Positions 1,327-14,030 of a stretch of DNA of 14,898 nucleotides are shown here, piece by piece. Source of the stretch: a virus (Duplodnaviria > Heunggongvirae > Uroviricota > Caudoviricetes); the IMG/VR virus record IMGVR_UViG_2663762992_000011; one strand, 5' to 3'. The notes beneath the pieces were generated by a model. It was not told where the DNA came from. It did no database searches and saw only the letters and a program-made list of their open reading frames with translations. The stretch's first letter is position 1, and every line of letters begins with the position of its first letter. Both the position numbers and the translations under genes were made by a program.

Positions 1327-1498
1327 GCCAACAGGAACACCACAACCACAAAAACGCTACAAAGATGCCCACGGAGCACTCGTTACTGTCGAAAGCGTGT
1401 CTCACAACCGAGTGACGTTTTATCGCGACGGGTATCAATCGCCATGCGTACAACCGCTGGCACGTTTCATGAAGGAGTTCGCGGAGGTTAACCAATGA
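1319..1498 (+). CDS. Small hypothetical protein (59 aa), possibly a conserved small prophage protein (DUF4222-like; tentative)
   Basis: ATG at 1319 overlaps the stop of the upstream gene (ATGTCTAA), suggesting translational coupling. Protein is MSKPTGTPQPQKRYKDAHGALVTVESVSHNRVTFYRDGYQSPCVQPLARFMKEFAEVNQ. Below the 60-aa cut-off as a separate ORF; appears in the track only as part of the longer frame 1232..1498. Confidence 0.4.
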   Translation: MSKPTGTPQPQKRYKDAHGALVTVESVSHNRVTFYRDGYQSPCVQPLARFMKEFAEVNQ

Positions 1499-1916
1499 TA
1501 CCCGTCCAGAAGAAGACATTTTCACTGGCTGGTATGTCGCCAAAATCCAGCAATATGACGGCAAAGTCAGGCATTAATACAGCAGATGCAAGCAAAGTTT
1601 ATCATTTGCTGGTGGTCGGAACGGATGCCTTAACCATACCAGAAATCACGGGCGATGATGTTAGCGTTGAGAAGGTCAGCGGCTGCGCCAGAGAATTTCT
1701 GGTCGTAGATGACCTGTTCTGCTCGTGTAGTGACTCCACAAAAACATTCGTCCACGCGCGTGACGTTAACGAAATGAGCGCGATGTACTGTGCTTCTGGT
1801 TCTTCCAATAGTGAGTTTTCGGAGTCCATAAAAAAGAGCTTGCCGTTATGCGGCAACACGGTTTATGGTTATAAGGCACCTCATAAAACGGGTGCCGGGA
1901 TTGGCGTCCTGGTAAA

Positions 1917-1924
1917 TCGAATGG
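1917..1924 (+). promoter_or_regulatory. seqA-like site (TCGAATGG), complementary to the seqB-like element at 2060-2067
   Basis: Exact 8-nt match to the reverse complement of CCATTCGA at 2060-2067. A second copy overlaps the downstream RBS at 2140-2147. Arrangement resembles P4 seqA-seqB-seqC. Confidence 0.35.
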
Positions 1925-1932
1925 CGACATAT

Positions 1933-1954
1933 GACGCGCCGAGCGTCTTTTTTT
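1933..1954 (+). terminator. Rho-independent terminator-like hairpin (GACGC-GCCGA-GCGTC followed by TTTTTTT)
   Basis: Perfect 5-bp GC-rich stem, 5-nt loop, 7-T run, read directly from the sequence. Sits immediately after the seqA-like site. Confidence 0.5.
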
Positions 1955-2024
1955 ATGTCGTAGGTCTGACTCACCCATTTTTTGGGCGTTGGTGTATAAT
2001 CCAGCGCCTTTGTCAATCAATGGT

Positions 2025-2130
2025 GGCTCAGGCAGGGGCTTCTTCGGAAGCGCCGGTATCCATTCGAGCCGGTTACGCCAACCCTGTCTGGGCTACCACC
2101 AGCGAAATTGGCGTTTCCGGTGGTAGCGTT
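2025..2130 (+). ncRNA. Candidate C4/CI-like antisense immunity RNA (boundaries approximate)
   Basis: GC-rich untranslated segment with a GCUUC-UUCG-GAAGC tetraloop hairpin (2038-2051), a 9-bp stem GCTACCACC/GGTGGTAGC (2092-2100 / 2119-2127), and the seqB-like CCATTCGA (2060-2067) complementary to flanking TCGAATGG copies. A TATAAT hexamer lies at 1995-2000. Frame 1 over this stretch translates to a Trp/Cys-rich implausible peptide. Confidence 0.35.
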
Positions 2131-2139
2131 ACATGCTAT

Positions 2140-2148
2140 CGAATGGAG
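2140..2148 (+). promoter_or_regulatory. seqC-like site (TCGAATGGA) overlapping the RBS of the Icd-like gene
   Basis: 9-nt complementarity to 2059-2067. GGAGG (2145-2149) is the RBS for the ATG at 2157, so pairing would occlude translation initiation, as described for P1 c4 and P4 cI targets. Confidence 0.35.
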
Positions 2149-2156
2149 GCTGCCAC

Positions 2157-2351
2157 ATGCTGGCTACTACCCCTACCCAAAAACCGCAATTTATCTGGAT
2201 TATCGCCGCAGTTCGCCGCGATTGCCCGACAATTACCGCCAAAATTCATCATATTGCTGCCGAGTCTGAACGCGATGCTCGCCGTTCTCTGGTGCGCGAT
2301 CACATCTGCTTTTTTGCTGGTCGTATCCGCATGGAGGTGGCACATGATTAA
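2157..2351 (+). CDS. Small protein, Icd-like (host cell division inhibitor-like; tentative)
   Basis: ATG at 2157 with GGAGG RBS 7 nt upstream. 64-aa product MLATTPTQKPQFIWIIAAVRRDCPTITAKIHHIAAESERDARRSLVRDHICFFAGRIRMEVAHD. Its position right after the C4/CI-like RNA matches the P1 c4-icd layout. The ESERDARR...FAGR pattern matches my recollection of Icd-like proteins; not verified. Confidence 0.5.
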   Translation: MLATTPTQKPQFIWIIAAVRRDCPTITAKIHHIAAESERDARRSLVRDHICFFAGRIRMEVAHD

Positions 2352-2562
2352 AACCTACGATGTGCATATGGATCCCCTCGAACGCACAAGCCAGATCATC
2401 ACACTGACAGAAGTGATTAACGACATTCTGGTGAGCAACTCTCCCTCACGAGACGAAAGACTAAAGGCGTTACTCGCGATATTGGATCTCGCCGTTCGTG
2501 ACGTTCATTTCCTGCTGGAAGGTGGACAAATGCCATGCAAAACGGGGGCAACCAATGAATAA
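2344..2562 (+). CDS. Small hypothetical protein (72 aa)
   Basis: ATG at 2344 overlaps the stop of the previous gene (ATGATTAA). Plausible protein-like sequence MIKTYDVHMDPLERTSQIITLTEVINDILVSNSPSRDERLKALLAILDLAVRDVHFLLEGGQ... Confidence 0.5.
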   Translation: MIKTYDVHMDPLERTSQIITLTEVINDILVSNSPSRDERLKALLAILDLAVRDVHFLLEGGQMPCKTGATNE

Positions 2563-7046: not shown

Positions 7047-7079
7047 ATGCCACCAGCTACTGAACGGTGGCATTTTTTT
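7047..7079 (+). terminator. Rho-independent terminator (ATGCCACC ... GGTGGCAT followed by a T-run)
   Basis: 8-bp perfect stem, 11-nt loop, six T residues (7074-7079). Confidence 0.6.
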
Positions 7080-7143
7080 GTGCTATTTGTTTCATGTTTT
7101 GCAATCATAATGATGAATGTTGCGTTTTATGAAACTATAATGA

Positions 7144-7159
7144 CTGTTGTTTTATACAG
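7144..7159. promoter_or_regulatory. LexA-box-like site CTGT-N8-ACAG (CTGTTGTTTTATACAG)
   Basis: Perfect CTGT/ACAG half-sites with an 8-nt T/A-rich spacer, 16 bp upstream of the ATG at 7175 and just downstream of a TATAAT hexamer (7136-7141). Resembles known SOS boxes such as uvrB-type; heterology index not computed. Confidence 0.35.
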
Positions 7160-7174
7160 TTCTAAGGGGGCATT

Positions 7175-7348
7175 ATGGCTATTTCAGTAAAGCCAGTATT
7201 GATAAGTGAGAAGCAAATGGAAGCGATAAAGAAAATTCAGGAGGAGCAGCGTAAAAAATCAGAGGTAGGAGTTGCGCCAACGATCCACGAAATTGCTCGG
7301 GGATTAATGGATAAGGCGCTGGCTTACACTTTAACTGGACGTGGGTAA
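7175..7348 (+). CDS. Small protein (57 aa), possibly a ribbon-helix-helix-type regulator; absent from the ORF track (below size cut-off)
   Basis: Strong RBS AAGGGGG 4 nt before the ATG at 7175, stop TAA at 7346-7348. Product MAISVKPVLISEKQMEAIKKIQEEQRKKSEVGVAPTIHEIARGLMDKALAYTLTGRG has a strand-helix-helix-like pattern. It directly precedes the large two-gene cargo operon. Confidence 0.45.
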   Translation: MAISVKPVLISEKQMEAIKKIQEEQRKKSEVGVAPTIHEIARGLMDKALAYTLTGRG

Positions 7349-7352
7349 ATTT

Positions 7353-8819
7353 ATGGCTACGTGGCAACAGGGTATTAATTCTGGTGGTTTTCTGGCTGGC
7401 ATTGGTGCGCAAAACGAGAATGCGCCAAAGGCAAGCGACATTAACACAACGCTTGGTCTGATCCGCGAAAACAATGAACTGGCTCGATCAGGTGCAAATA
7501 ACGTTGGTCTGACCGCGTTACGTGGTCTGGCTGGAGTTGCTGATATTTATAAGCAGCAGCAACAGCAGGAACGTAAAGCGGCATTCCAGAAAGGTTATGC
7601 GGATGCTTATGCGTCCGGCGACAGGGAGCAGATGCGTAATCTTATTACAGCATTCCCCGAAGAGTTTGAGGAAGTTCGTAAAGGCATGGGGTATGTCGAT
7701 GACGCCCAGCGGAATGATTTTGGCAATCTGGCGCTTAAGGCTCAGGTCGCTTCGTCGCTTGGTCCGGGTGCATTTGGCAGGTTCATGATGGATAACGAAA
7801 AGGAGATGCGTCGTTTAGGTATCCCTCCAGAAACTATTGCTGAAATGCAGGTTAATGACCCGCAGGGCTTCCAGCATTTCGCAGGTAATCTGGCGCTGTT
7901 TTCTCTCGGTCATGAGAAGTACTTCGATATCAAAGATCGAATGGAAGGTCGGGATATTGAGCGTGGCAAGTTGGCAGAAACAATCCGCAGCAATCAGGCT
8001 GGCGAAGCACTTCAGGCGAGAGGGCAGGATATTAGCCGAGCAAATGCGTTAACGTCAGCATATGCACCAACAGCAGCAATGCAGAATTACAATCAGTACG
8101 CTCAAATGTTAAAGGCGGATCCAGAGGGGGCGGCGGCATTTGCGGCAGCGGCTGGAATTAATACAAACGCCAAAAAATTAATGAGTGTTAGAGAAAACGA
8201 TGATGGCACTGTCACAAAATACTACACAGACGGAAGTGAAGAGCATGGAAAACTAAACCAGCCAATATCTGGAGATGGGTTTCGTCCAATAGCTTTGCCA
8301 ACAGCCCAAAAGATCATGGAAAAGTCGCCAGAAGGGGCTAAAAAAGCTGCTGGATTTGCATACAGAGTTAGGGATGCTCTTGATTCAATGGATACACTGA
8401 AAGGCCAGCTTAGCCCACAGCGAGTGGCGATCATTAATAATGCTTTGGGTAATGGGACGCTGGCTAACTTAACGCTCAGCCCAACAGAGCAGCAATACGT
8501 TGTTAATGCTAATGACGCAATAATGGCAATACTCCGTCAGGAAACAGGGGCAGCTATCGTACCTGCTGAAATGTCAAAATATTATCAAATGTATTTCCCT
8601 CAGCCTGGCGACTCCACAAAAACCATTGATACCAAGCGCCGGAAGATGGAAAACCAGTTCAATTCGCTGAAAGCTGCTTCTGGTCGAGCTTATGATGCTT
8701 TGCGGGTTATTTCAGCAGTTGACAGAGGGACTTCTTCTTCGTCGCAGACATTGCCGCAATCTGAGCAGGTATCACAGCCAGCAGCCAGCAGTAATTTTTC
8801 TTCACTATGGGGTGATTAA
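7353..8819 (+). CDS. Hypothetical protein (488 aa), Ala/Gln-rich, no recognised domain
   Basis: Long ORF (track 7341..8819; ATG at 7353 preferred). Its stop overlaps the start of the next gene (TAATGG). Composition is low-complexity and helical-looking with an S-rich C-terminus; no catalytic motif noticed. Confidence 0.7.
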   Translation: MATWQQGINSGGFLAGIGAQNENAPKASDINTTLGLIRENNELARSGANNVGLTALRGLAGVADIYKQQQQQERKAAFQKGYADAYASGDREQMRNLITAFPEEFEEVRKGMGYVDDAQRNDFGNLALKAQVASSLGPGAFGRFMMDNEKEMRRLGIPPETIAEMQVNDPQGFQHFAGNLALFSLGHEKYFDIKDRMEGRDIERGKLAETIRSNQAGEALQARGQDISRANALTSAYAPTAAMQNYNQYAQMLKADPEGAAAFAAAAGINTNAKKLMSVRENDDGTVTKYYTDGSEEHGKLNQPISGDGFRPIALPTAQKIMEKSPEGAKKAAGFAYRVRDALDSMDTLKGQLSPQRVAIINNALGNGTLANLTLSPTEQQYVVNANDAIMAILRQETGAAIVPAEMSKYYQMYFPQPGDSTKTIDTKRRKMENQFNSLKAASGRAYDALRVISAVDRGTSSSSQTLPQSEQVSQPAASSNFSSLWGD

Positions 8820-10924
8820 TGGCTAAAGCATGGAAAGATGTTATCGCCTCTCCACAGTATCAGGCGTTAGCACCAGAGCAAAAAGCGCAGGCTCAGGAGC
8901 AATACTTCAATGAAGTCGTGGCCCCGCAAGCCGGAGAAAGTGTAGAGCAGGCTAAGCAGGCTTTTTATGCTGCCTATCCACTACCATCAACGAATGAAAT
9001 AGACCGATCCCAATCAGCAACTCAAAATATTCAACATACATCATCTGATAATTCTCTTGCGTCAGGGTATGCAAAGTTAGCTACTCAGCAAAGAGAGGGG
9101 CTTGAGCGTTCAGCAGAACAGGGAGCCAGTCTTGGGGCTGCTATGCGCGATGCTATAACAGGCGAAAGCCGAATGACTCCAGAGATGGAGAGACTGCAAA
9201 ATGTCGACCTTGCCCCAGAGTTAACCTCACTCAGCATGGATGCTCTAAAAGCTCGATGGTCTCAACTTTTCGGCTCTGACGCATCTCAGGAAAAGATTCT
9301 TCAGAGCATGGGAGCGAAATTAAGGCAGGATGAGAAGGGTAACACTATCGTTTCCCTGCCATCCGGTGATTATGCTCTGAACAAGCCGGGTTTATCGCCG
9401 CAAGACGTGGCATCGTTTCTGGCTAATGCGCTGGCGTTTACACCAGCGGGCAGGGCTGGAACGGTGCTTGGTGCCATAGGAAAATCAGCAGCTACAGATT
9501 TAGCACTACAGGGAGCCACCAGCCTTGCTGGTGGAGAAGATATTGATCCGTTACAAACGGTAATTTCTGCTGGCATTGGTGGTATTGGTAAGGGGCTGGA
9601 AAATACAGCGAGTGCGGTTTCGAGGGCTGTTCGTGGTGATATGTCGCCTGAAGCAAAGGCTGCTGTCAACTTTGCATCGGAAAGAAATCTGCCGTTAATG
9701 ACCAGTGACATGCTGAAAGATAAAACCTTTATGCAGAGTCAGGCTCAGACATTAGGCGAAAGAGTTCCTTTTTTTGGAACCGGTAAGAATCGGCTGAATC
9801 AACAACAAGCACGAGAAAATTTAGTCAGAACATTTAGCGATGGTCTGGGTGGCATTTCTGATAAACAGCTTTATGAATCTGCGACTAAAGGGCAACAAAA
9901 ATTCATTGAGGCAGCAGGAAAGCGATATAACCGCATAATTGACGCTATGGGGGATACCCCTGTCGATCTCTCAAACACGGTAAAAGCTATCGACAATCAG
10001 ATTGCCGTGTTAAGCCGCCCGGGAAAATCTCAGGATAGAGCCGCGGTAAAAGTCTTGCAGCAATTTAAAGACGATATCACCAGCGGACCAAATGACCTGC
10101 GTCTGGCGAGGGAAAACAGAACCGATCTTCGAAAGCGATTTATGGCGTCATCTGACACTGTTGATAAAGATACGCTCCAGAAAGCCAGCGATATTATCTA
10201 CAAGGCATATACGGCGGATATGAAAAAAGCCGTAGCCAAAAATCTTGGAGCAGACGAAGCCATTAATATGGCAAGGGTTGATCGCTCATGGTCTAAATTC
10301 AATGACATGATGGGAAGAACGCGCGTTCAAAAGGCAATAGCCAGCGGCAAGGCCACGCCTGAGGATGTAACAAAACTCGTTTTTAGCCAAAGCCCATCAG
10401 AACGTTCTCAGCTTTACAGGCTTCTGGATGACAATGGTAGGCAAAACGCACGAGCAGCCATAGTTCAGAATGCTGTAGATAAGGCGACTGATCCGTCTGG
10501 AAATATCAGTGTTGAGAAGTTTATTAATGCGTTACACCGGAACAGGAAGCAATCAGCAACTTTCTTTAAAGGCGTACATGGAAAGGAACTGGACGGCGTT
10601 ATTAAATACCTCAACGATACAAGACACGCGGCAAAAGCGAACGTTCAAAACTTAAATGGTCAGCAGCTTTATGGATTGTTAGTTGGTGGTGGCATCATAA
10701 ACGCAGCAGTATTAGCGGGGATGCTAAAAACGGCTGCGTTTGTTGTTCCTGCTGCTGGTGCCGTAGGCGGAGCCGCGAAGGCATACGAAAGCCCTGTTAT
10801 ACGAAATGCCTTGTTACGTCTGGCAAATACGCCAAAAGGTAGCACAGCATATGACAGAGCGATCAGTACGGTCACACAATCACTGACCACAGCAGCACAA
10901 GCATCGCAAAAGGAAGCTCAATAA
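8819..10924 (+). CDS. Hypothetical protein (701 aa) with a C-terminal Gly/Ala-rich hydrophobic hairpin-like segment
   Basis: Long ORF coupled to the upstream gene. Near the C-terminus, LLVGGGIINAAVLAGMLKTAAFVVPAAGAVGGAA forms two hydrophobic Gly/Ala-zipper stretches split by KT. The rest is hydrophilic and Ala/Gln/Lys-rich. No family recognised. Confidence 0.75.
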   Translation: MAKAWKDVIASPQYQALAPEQKAQAQEQYFNEVVAPQAGESVEQAKQAFYAAYPLPSTNEIDRSQSATQNIQHTSSDNSLASGYAKLATQQREGLERSAEQGASLGAAMRDAITGESRMTPEMERLQNVDLAPELTSLSMDALKARWSQLFGSDASQEKILQSMGAKLRQDEKGNTIVSLPSGDYALNKPGLSPQDVASFLANALAFTPAGRAGTVLGAIGKSAATDLALQGATSLAGGEDIDPLQTVISAGIGGIGKGLENTASAVSRAVRGDMSPEAKAAVNFASERNLPLMTSDMLKDKTFMQSQAQTLGERVPFFGTGKNRLNQQQARENLVRTFSDGLGGISDKQLYESATKGQQKFIEAAGKRYNRIIDAMGDTPVDLSNTVKAIDNQIAVLSRPGKSQDRAAVKVLQQFKDDITSGPNDLRLARENRTDLRKRFMASSDTVDKDTLQKASDIIYKAYTADMKKAVAKNLGADEAINMARVDRSWSKFNDMMGRTRVQKAIASGKATPEDVTKLVFSQSPSERSQLYRLLDDNGRQNARAAIVQNAVDKATDPSGNISVEKFINALHRNRKQSATFFKGVHGKELDGVIKYLNDTRHAAKANVQNLNGQQLYGLLVGGGIINAAVLAGMLKTAAFVVPAAGAVGGAAKAYESPVIRNALLRLANTPKGSTAYDRAISTVTQSLTTAAQASQKEAQ

Positions 10925-10985: not shown

Positions 10986-11384
10986 TTAACACTTGCCTTT
11001 AACATTGCCGACAAATGAGCCTGTAAATGAGCCTATATCAGATCGACTAATTGTTCGTGTATGGATCACTTTTCCGTCATTTGAGATTGCCCATGTGACA
11101 AGCGTCAGTTGACCATCTCGATAGCTTCTCCCCATCATGGCATTCGGAGATAGCGGGTAATAATCAATACCTCCACCTATACCATCTTTTGCCAAGATAA
11201 GATCCGCCTTCTCTTTACTTATTACCAAATGAAATGTATCTGGTATAGATGATAACTTATAGTTATACCCATCTGAACTTGAGGCTTCTTGTCCTTTCAG
11301 ATCACCAATAATCCAGCATTCAGCGTTCGCTCCAAAAGAAGCAAATAATAAACCGGAGACAACCAATCGCTTCAATTGATTCAC
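10986..11384 (-). CDS. Small secreted (signal-peptide) protein, about 132 aa precursor, function unknown
   Basis: Minus-strand ORF (track 10986..11453). Preferred start is GTG at 11384, preceded by AAAGGGAGGG with a 5-nt spacer, giving a textbook signal peptide MNQLKRLVVSGLLFASFGANA followed by ECW. AT-rich gene, convergent with the 701-aa gene. Confidence 0.55.
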   Translation of the reverse strand: MNQLKRLVVSGLLFASFGANAECWIIGDLKGQEASSSDGYNYKLSSIPDTFHLVISKEKADLILAKDGIGGGIDYYPLSPNAMMGRSYRDGQLTLVTWAISNDGKVIHTRTISRSDIGSFTGSFVGNVKGKC

Positions 11385-11500
11385 ACCAACCCTCCCTTTA
11401 GCGTTGTTTAGAATGGCAATCATCATATATCCAAGACATGGCATTTGGTACATAGCTTGGGTCGGGATTTCAAATCCGCTCCCAGTTGATGGGGCCGTTA

Positions 11501-14010: not shown

Positions 14011-14030
14011 AACTGTATATAAACACAGTT
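14011..14030. promoter_or_regulatory. LexA box of dinD (AACTGTATATAAACACAGTT)
   Basis: CTGT-N8-ACAG with an AT-rich spacer, embedded in a longer palindrome (TACAACTGT...ACAGTTGTA). Near-identical to the dinD SOS box as I remember it. Sits 44 bp upstream of the dinD ATG. Confidence 0.8.

Follow-up and report, generated by a model that had tools for sequence, protein, structure and literature searches.

Genes and features of the locus

The stretch analysed here, a window of 14,898 nucleotides (nt) catalogued under Caudoviricetes (IMG/VR virus record IMGVR_UViG_2663762992_000011), encodes AntA, DUF4222, Ash and a TOPRIM/DUF927 primase, followed by a terminator, a promoter and an operon made up of a 57-amino-acid (aa) open reading frame (ORF), a gp20-type gene and a gp16-type gene (Table 1). 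The region 3' of the gp16-type gene holds convergent small ORFs, then PerC and then the host gene dinD. Judged by its gene content, the window is an EcCIMP1-like phage-inducible chromosomal island (PICI) and not a phage. Our analysis centres on the 701-aa gp16-type protein and on a hydrophobic segment near its C-terminus, which an earlier note, made from the letters of the sequence, had described as a Gly/Ala-zipper hairpin of a possible membrane-active effector.

Table 1. Features of the ejection-protein operon and its surroundings, with positions in the window
Feature	Position (nt)	Strand	Remarks
Terminator-like hairpin with T-run	7056..7081	+	separates the primase unit from the ejection-protein operon
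TATAAT -10 hexamer, 2 bases upstream of the LexA-box-like site	7136..7141	+	read from the sequence
LexA-box-like site CTGTTGTTTTATACAG	7144..7159	+	CTGT-N8-ACAG, 16 nt upstream of the first ATG of the operon
57-aa ORF MAISVKPVLISEKQMEAIKKIQ..., head of the operon	7175..7348	+	annotated at the same place in XDL, PKF4 and MP1
gp20-type ejection protein, 488 aa from ATG 7353	7353..8819	+	PF16928 Inj_translocase, E 7e-85; PHROG 917, E 5e-147
gp16-type ejection protein gene, 701 aa	8819..10924	+	P22 gp16 / Sf6 gp13 family ('DNA transfer / injection')
Second, weaker Gly/Ala-rich region, aa 197-270	9407..9628	+	rival candidate for membrane contact; AlphaFold2 (AF2) predicted local distance difference test (pLDDT) <50 over aa 201-270
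G614, boundary residue, at least 90% conserved	10658..10660	+	aligns with G532 of P22 gp16
Arm 1 LYGLLVGGGIINAAVLAGML, aa 617-636, 20 uncharged residues	10667..10726	+	Wimley-White (WW) octanol 19-mer -1.44; Hessa +2.64
Hydrophobic segment LLVGGGIINAAVLAGMLKTAAFVVPAAGAVGGAA, aa 620-653	10676..10777	+	highest point of the hydropathy averaged over the family
Central Lys-Thr, K637 T638, between the arms	10727..10732	+	family-wide polar/turn position (K, D, N-P)
Arm 2 AAFVVPAAGAVGGAA, aa 639-653, Gly/Ala-rich, weakly hydrophobic	10733..10777	+	WW +7.55 (aa 638-655)
C-terminal flank Y656-E-S ... R662-NALLRLANTPKGS	10784..10843	+	Y656, E657, S658 and R662 at least 90% conserved in 126 homologues
155-aa ORF, convergent with the gp16 gene, at the position of P22 sieA	10986-11453	-	signal-peptide-like N-terminus LKRLVVSGLLFASFGANA/E

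Identity of the 701-aa protein

Full-length sequence comparison places the 701-aa ORF almost certainly in the family of P22 gp16-type ejection proteins. The profile of PHROG 770 ('DNA transfer protein') matches aa 19-700 with its positions 3-667 of 668 (E 3.3e-161), and tblastn found Sf6 gp13 over the full length (33% identity), P22 gp16 over aa 210-683 (30% identity, E 2e-38) and also phage L gp16; 1394 library representatives match the protein at E <=1e-3. PF26808 (Phage_P22_gp16) is a precomputed assignment on cluster representatives 96% identical to the ORF. The Pfam-A copy that we searched gave no match, because PF26808 is newer than this copy, and the NCBIfam search gave none either. Among the predicted viral structures of BFVD the fold neighbours are injection proteins (E 1e-19), besides internal virion proteins with a fused transglycosylase. 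A sequence search of the PDB returned chance matches only (E ~0.8), and Foldseek against the PDB gave no match at E <=1e-3, with AhlB, AhlC and PaxB as non-significant neighbours.

The likeness to P22 gp16, Sf6 gp13 and phage L gp16 is one of full-length homology and includes the C-terminal motifs TGQ ... YES..RNALLRLANTP.GS, which flank a two-arm segment of small residues. Gene order 20-16 is also that of P22, together with a one-base overlap: base 8819 belongs both to the stop of the gp20-type gene and to the start of the gp16-type gene, just as base 11484 is common to P22 genes 20 and 16, and from this arrangement the gp16-type gene is predicted to be translationally coupled to the gp20 homologue. 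The start of the latter was taken from the annotation of strain PKF4, the Pfam match covering ORF 7341/7353-8819. What differs from the P22 gp16 family is the setting, as the gene lies in a satellite island, outside a virion-assembly cluster. The protein itself is a mosaic, with the N-terminal 56 residues of Sf6/HK620 type and a core nearest to that of phage N7 (67%), while the C-terminal 174 residues had no match above 55% identity among 50,697 phage records.

With this assignment, the analogy to phage channel-forming proteins drawn in the earlier note proved apt, since members of the P22 gp16 family are components of the conduit assigned to the cytoplasmic membrane. The parallel to tape-measure proteins was not borne out: there is no such match in Pfam or PHROG, and the window holds no tail genes. 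A functional analogue is T7 gp16 (transmembrane helix (TMH) II), the inner-membrane part of the podovirus ejectosome, which is soluble before ejection; refolding into the inner membrane is ascribed to putative transmembrane (TM) helices near its C-terminus (PMC8954989). It differs by its length of 1318 aa and its N-terminal transglycosylase domain; no sequence or fold match to it was detected, and the relation is one of analogy and synteny.

The C-terminal hydrophobic segment

The 19-residue Kyte-Doolittle (KD) mean of the 701-aa protein (Ala 14.3%, Gln 7.1%) exceeds 1.2 solely in the C-terminal segment, where it peaks at 1.79 at aa 625 in a frame straddling both arms; the next-highest value elsewhere is 0.95, at aa 200. 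The single markedly hydrophobic stretch that had been noticed within nt 10640-10780 is therefore real, and so is its division into two uncharged arms around K637-T638. The longest run free of D, E, K and R in the whole protein is aa 607-636, and arm 1 is the sole part that passes simple TM thresholds (WW <0). Arm 2 contains Pro644 and the only GxxxG of the segment (G647-G651), and is followed by K654.

In a protein so rich in Ala, such a stretch might be no more than a random fluctuation in composition without any specific role. The 19-residue peak taken alone would agree with this, as 12% of 20,000 composition-preserving shuffles reach 1.79 and the peak is not unusual. However, the 34-residue mean of 1.63 was reached by only 87 of the 20,000 shuffles (0.4%), which marks the stretch as a whole as unusual, and the same property recurs between two motifs of at least 90% conservation in homologues down to 24% identity. 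As two functional mutations of P22 also map to the segment (see below), a mere fluctuation is hardly credible.

How far hydropathy can be taken as a sign of membrane insertion was calibrated on other proteins. The primase of the window, which is presumably soluble and cytoplasmic, contains a segment with KD 1.76, WW octanol -2.2 and Hessa +2.9, whereas P22 SieA and a Yersinia prophage membrane protein, used as controls, reach KD 2.6-2.7 and WW -14 to -16. P22 gp7, whose C-terminal helices have been placed in the outer membrane (2026 in-situ structure, preprint), scores only KD 1.31 and WW -0.58, both extremes lying in its C-terminal region, and marginal hydropathy is therefore normal for ejection proteins. 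In consequence of the primase and gp7 values, hydropathy alone cannot decide on the membrane insertion of the gp16 segment.

Conservation across the family

The family was compared in an alignment of 126 sequences, consisting of the query, 122 diverse homologues and the proteins of N7, Sf6 and P22 (24-73% identity). In every aligned homologue 30-40 residues lie between the G614 and Y656-E-S motifs. Across the family this segment has a G+A+S+T fraction of 0.53 (vs 0.36 in whole proteins), a mean KD of +0.98 (vs -0.36) and 1-3 charges, and the fraction of polar or turn residues peaks at 0.24 in its fifth tenth (decile index 4), with 0.01-0.13 in the arms. The highest peak of the family-mean hydropathy lies at aa 617-631, ahead of second and third peaks at aa 247-261 and 197-211, and the global hydropathy maximum falls within the last 110 residues in 79 of 123 representatives. 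Identity, expressed as the mean frequency of the top residue, is 0.31 inside the segment vs 0.56 in its N-terminal and 0.64 in its C-terminal flank, and indels of 10 residues are tolerated among homologues. Low identity together with tolerated indels is more in keeping with exposure to lipid or to an interface than with a place in a buried core. As far as the alignment tells, it is the physico-chemical property of the segment that is conserved across the family and not the sequence itself, and this conservation is a stronger argument for the reality of the segment than the hydropathy scores.

Within this series, the window carries what is, by sequence, the longest of the alleles compared and one of the most hydrophobic versions of the conserved C-terminal hydrophobic element of the family. 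The segment measures 30-31 residues in P22 and Sf6 and 40 here, the longest among the 126 compared; its mean KD is 0.67 and 0.53 in these phages and 1.30 here, and in place of the four charges of the P22 segment there is a 20-residue uncharged arm. The proteins of P22 and Sf6 have their highest KD value before the C-terminal segment is reached, within the first third of the chain (aa 79 and 213). A hairpin type specific to satellites was considered and rejected, as the same hairpin type, of 42 residues, also occurs in a complete P22-like prophage of Yersinia enterocolitica, in an allele of 73% identity that has genes for portal, coat, gp7 and gp20 around it; the type is therefore not peculiar to satellite islands.

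Probable membrane insertion of the segment and the interface alternative

The reading that we favour is that aa 617-653 are probably the element by which the inner-membrane part of the DNA conduit inserts into the bilayer. P22 gp16 is needed for DNA entry (PMC10461980) and is the sole conduit component seen crossing the cytoplasmic membrane (P22, 2026 in-situ cryo-electron microscopy (cryo-EM)). It has been described as lacking any strongly predicted TM helix, and putative C-terminal TM helices are reported in all gp16-like homologues in a review (PMC8954989). A direct link to the inner membrane comes from SieA, an inner-membrane exclusion protein, from which P22 escapes by the gp16 changes G532W and P546S together with changes in the C-terminal part of gp20 (338-350) (PMC10461980). 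In both of our alignments, P22 G532 aligns with G614 at the N-terminal edge of the segment, and P546 falls inside the segment, in arm 1 according to a four-sequence alignment and in the central turn according to the 126-sequence alignment. The hydrophobicity of the allele and its coincidence with the SieA-escape positions therefore make the segment a concrete candidate for the membrane-crossing element of gp16. Family membership, the conserved position and composition of the segment and the mapping of the SieA-escape changes we take as established at the level of sequence comparison.

Ejection proteins of the P22 gp16 type are packaged in the virion and expelled through the tail upon infection, and the expelled protein assembles beneath the periplasmic tube of gp7 and gp20 to form the part of the conduit that crosses the cytoplasmic membrane. 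In the mechanism that we propose, the marginal hydrophobicity of aa 617-653 would keep the segment tolerably soluble as long as it is stored in the capsid. Post-translational insertion would follow ejection and start from the periplasmic side, the segment taking the form of a helix-turn-helix that turns near K637/T638 or else of a re-entrant knee. With 6-12 copies, the segments of adjacent subunits could pack against each other and thereby anchor or line the inner-membrane pore.

The predicted structure agrees with part of this picture. For the AF2 monomer, the alignment comprised 123 sequences, with P22, Sf6 and N7 left out, and the model has a mean pLDDT of 82 and a predicted template modelling score (pTM) of 0.63. 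The core of aa 271-610 is confident, and pLDDT falls below 50 at aa 625-639 and 201-270, so the segment is not predicted as a well-packed core element. Structure prediction, one of the checks suggested along with the hairpin, hence returned a confident core, a segment centre of low confidence and no clean hairpin.

Several observations weigh against membrane insertion. The hydropathy of the segment is marginal, equal to that of the primase segment and far below that of true inner-membrane proteins, and its Hessa-scale sum is +2.6 kcal/mol. The segments of P22 and Sf6 are much less hydrophobic, the KD maximum of the P22 protein (1.18) being located elsewhere, and in most alleles the arms have 12-15 residues, too short for two full TM helices. 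A classical TM hairpin would call for two stretches of ~19 or more residues, each above the hydropathy thresholds; here arm 1 has 20 residues and arm 2 has 15-16. In place of a clean hairpin at K-T, the AF2 monomer has a helix at 614-623, a coil at 624-634 and a helix at 635-656, and no solved homologue was found in the PDB by sequence or by fold. According to the account of Perez et al. (2009) given in PMC10461980, P22 residues 476-609 are dispensable for membrane association in vitro. Finally, the i,i+4 spacing of a glycine zipper is not above composition, whether tested by shuffling the segment or across the family: the segment has 8 small-xxx-small pairs vs 7.9 expected from shuffling, with 61% of the shuffles reaching 8, and the family-wide enrichment is z = 1.0 at i,i+4 and z = 8.8 at i,i+3. 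The Gly/Ala 'zipper' of the earlier description is accordingly a matter of composition.

Many of these points would suit another reading, in which the segment is a flexible Gly/Ala-rich protein-protein interface, used either for the self-assembly of gp16 or for docking on the C-terminal 'plinth' of gp20, while aa 197-270 contact the membrane; the SieA-escape changes would then map to the segment since SieA disturbs that assembly step. We regard this as possible, if rather unlikely. It gains from the need for SieA escape of changes both in gp16 (532, 546) and in the C-terminal region of gp20 (338-350), which suggests a shared interface, and from the preference of small residues for i,i+3 over i,i+4 spacing. 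The short arms of most alleles, the four charges in the P22 segment, a hydropathy not above that of the primase segment and membrane association in vitro without residues 476-609, as far as the citing paper relates it, point the same way. Besides, AF2 fails to place aa 197-270 just as it does the segment, and the membrane element could be there; the membrane association reported for P22 gp16 truncated at its C-terminus may be due to this region. On the other hand, the C-terminal segment is on average the most hydrophobic position of the family, and 10-residue indels at an identity of 0.31 are unusual for a specific interface. Since gp16 is the sole conduit component crossing the cytoplasmic membrane, some part of it must span the bilayer, and the present allele offers 20 consecutive uncharged residues with WW <0. 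We therefore keep to membrane insertion as the preferred reading, and we infer that it is this segment rather than aa 197-270 which lies in the bilayer, and likewise its topology. Within the AF2 model, pLDDT climbs from 47 to 91 along helix 635-656, which includes arm 2.

Taken alone, the hairpin is what one would expect in this known family of virion proteins. The value of the hydrophobic allele lies in its use as a handle for chimera work and as a lead to what determines SieA sensitivity.

The operon promoter and the question of a toxin

The idea of a membrane-active effector under SOS control had joined the segment to a putative regulatory site upstream. The part that stood is the site itself: a CTGT-N8-ACAG sequence is located next to a perfect TATAAT hexamer at the operon promoter, and the site recurs at the same place in two other island variants, L001 (17239-17254) and L005 (13361-13376). 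The pattern has two matches in the window vs 0.21 expected, the other being the SOS box of host dinD at 14013-14028, and the operon site agrees with the 20-nt consensus at 14 of 20 positions. On this basis the promoter carries a plausible SOS box. Its -35 element is weak (ATGAAT, with a 17-nt spacer), which is why the promoter is absent from the list of the consensus scan. The promoter and the 57-aa ORF occur together in 866 of 5,426 complete E. coli genomes. In genuine P22-like prophages the match begins only at gene 20 and the promoter is absent (hits H103-H105). The 57-aa ORF had no match in Pfam, PHROGs or PADLOC and resembles a ribbon-helix-helix protein by eye only.

The segment bears a putative resemblance to the hairpins of colicin-type and alpha-pore-forming toxins, which are Ala/Gly-rich, nearly charge-free stretches of about 35-40 residues in soluble helical proteins that have to insert post-translationally. 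Colicin operons also have an SOS-box-like site upstream, as does the operon of the window. The ORF might have been domesticated as an SOS-induced membrane-active toxin or abortive-infection effector that acts from inside the cell in the manner of a colicin or holin. Such a role would go along with the LexA-box-like site on the operon promoter, which is conserved in three island variants, with an island that has neither capsid nor tail genes, and with the persistence of an intact gp16 gene in the partly degraded island of strain D2. Moreover, the related island EcCIMP1 confers an unexplained superinfection immunity and has no known defence system (PMC11773190). Nevertheless, the homology of the protein to virion ejection proteins is full-length and collinear, with all conserved motifs retained, and its gene is coupled to gp20, in other variants also to gp14 and gp7, that is, to a cassette of virion proteins. 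Searches of Pfam, NCBIfam and PADLOC returned no toxin, colicin, holin or defence family for the ORF, PADLOC gave no match for any of seven island proteins, and no immunity or lysis gene accompanies the operon. P22 gp16 is reported to form no open channel when gp20 is absent (2026 in-situ cryo-EM study), and the same hairpin type is found in a complete P22-like prophage. We thus consider the domesticated toxin very improbable, and neither the comparison with pore-forming toxins nor the free-standing effector proposed in the earlier note is upheld by the full-length homology to a virion protein.

An ejection-protein operon in a satellite island

EcCIMP1-like PICIs are defined here by an integrase, an AlpA-type regulator and a primase, by the lack of capsid and lysis genes, by a size of ~15-18 kb and by flanking host genes. 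The window, taken together with near-identical islands in strains XDL and PKF4, which include the integrase, a helix-turn-helix (HTH)/AlpA regulator and the host flanks, has this architecture. No portal, coat, capsid or tail genes were found in the window or in related loci, and a primase lies upstream of the ejection genes instead. EcCIMP1 is an island of E. coli MP1, and its mobilisation depends on a P22-like helper phage, Kapi1 (Pick et al. 2025, PMC11773190); helper-driven induction and transfer are shown for this pair only. It shares the backbone of AntA, DUF4222, Ash, TOPRIM/DUF927 primase, small ORF, ejection-protein cassette and PerC, and it differs in several respects. EcCIMP1 sits at thrW, whereas the variant of the window lies between yicC and dinD; it has homologues of gp14 (DUF2824), gp7 and gp20, whereas the window lacks gp14 and gp7 genes; and its gp16 position is occupied by a 906-aa gene, presumably another gp16 allele, whose annotation includes a lytic-transglycosylase domain, in place of the 701-aa allele found here. 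Homologues of gp14 (DUF2824) and gp7 are likewise present in related islands at thrW, and the island variants (the window, L001, L005, L008 and L009) differ in integration site, cassette content and gp16 allele. The EcCIMP1 paper mentions 'DNA transfer' genes and does not analyse them, and the words 'ejection' and 'injection' are absent from it (PMC11773190); our literature searches found no other analysis of a satellite-borne ejection-protein operon.

The gp16 allele of the window is present in 728 of 5,426 complete E. coli genomes, with at least 80% of the gene covered in 398 of them. Compared with the PKF4 allele there are 61 synonymous and 41 non-synonymous codon differences, clustered in patches, which is consistent with mosaic exchange and purifying selection. 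In E. coli D2 (L009, 9888-14106) the island is degraded and the primase truncated, and the 701-aa gp16 gene is intact (99.8% identity); the remnant ahead of gp16 is annotated there as a partial 'acyltransferase'.

The presence of an ejection operon fronted by an SOS box in a widespread satellite suggests that satellites may tamper with or personalise DNA delivery. Spelled out, EcCIMP1-like satellites would carry their own mosaic P22-type ejection cassette behind a LexA-controlled promoter, and on SOS induction the gp20 and gp16 of the satellite would be put into helper capsids. The hypervariable hydrophobic hairpin, located where the SieA-escape changes map, would then be the specificity determinant by which particles with the satellite get past the inner-membrane exclusion proteins of recipient lysogens, or else it would spoil the helper virions. 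We hold this scenario to be unlikely. If it were true, a strongly hydrophobic allele would identify the part of gp16 that crosses the cytoplasmic membrane. The satellite-borne ejection operon with its SOS box is a more novel lead than the hairpin.

Neighbouring ORFs and envelope proteins

The 155-aa ORF that converges on the gp16-type gene encodes a putatively secreted protein that occurs in lambdoid and P22-like phages; it is about 30% identical to Sf6 gene 38 and to repressor-adjacent genes of phages 434 and HK446. Its relatives in Emek and ST-35, two P22-like phages, lie at ~12-14 kb, consistent with the sieA slot. A direct relationship to SieA was rejected (BLASTP E 1.7), and the ORF is a candidate for an envelope-located exclusion or conversion factor. 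Relaxed Pfam searches with the 57-aa, 155-aa and 151-aa ORFs gave no match. In the Yersinia prophage (L006, 12034-12737, minus strand), a 116-aa polytopic membrane protein (KD19 2.67) and a 108-aa secreted protein are encoded 3' of gene 16. A hotspot for genes of envelope proteins seems to lie behind gene 16.

Elsewhere in the window, the 355-aa 'Ash family' ORF (1495-2562, plus strand) has a strongly hydrophobic C-terminal stretch FIILLPSLNAMLAVLWCAITSAFLLVVSAW at aa ~251-282 with KD19 2.29 and WW -11.6, and resembles a TM helix much more than the gp16 hairpin does. Strains PKF4 and MP1 have instead a truncated ash gene with an Icd-like gene after it.

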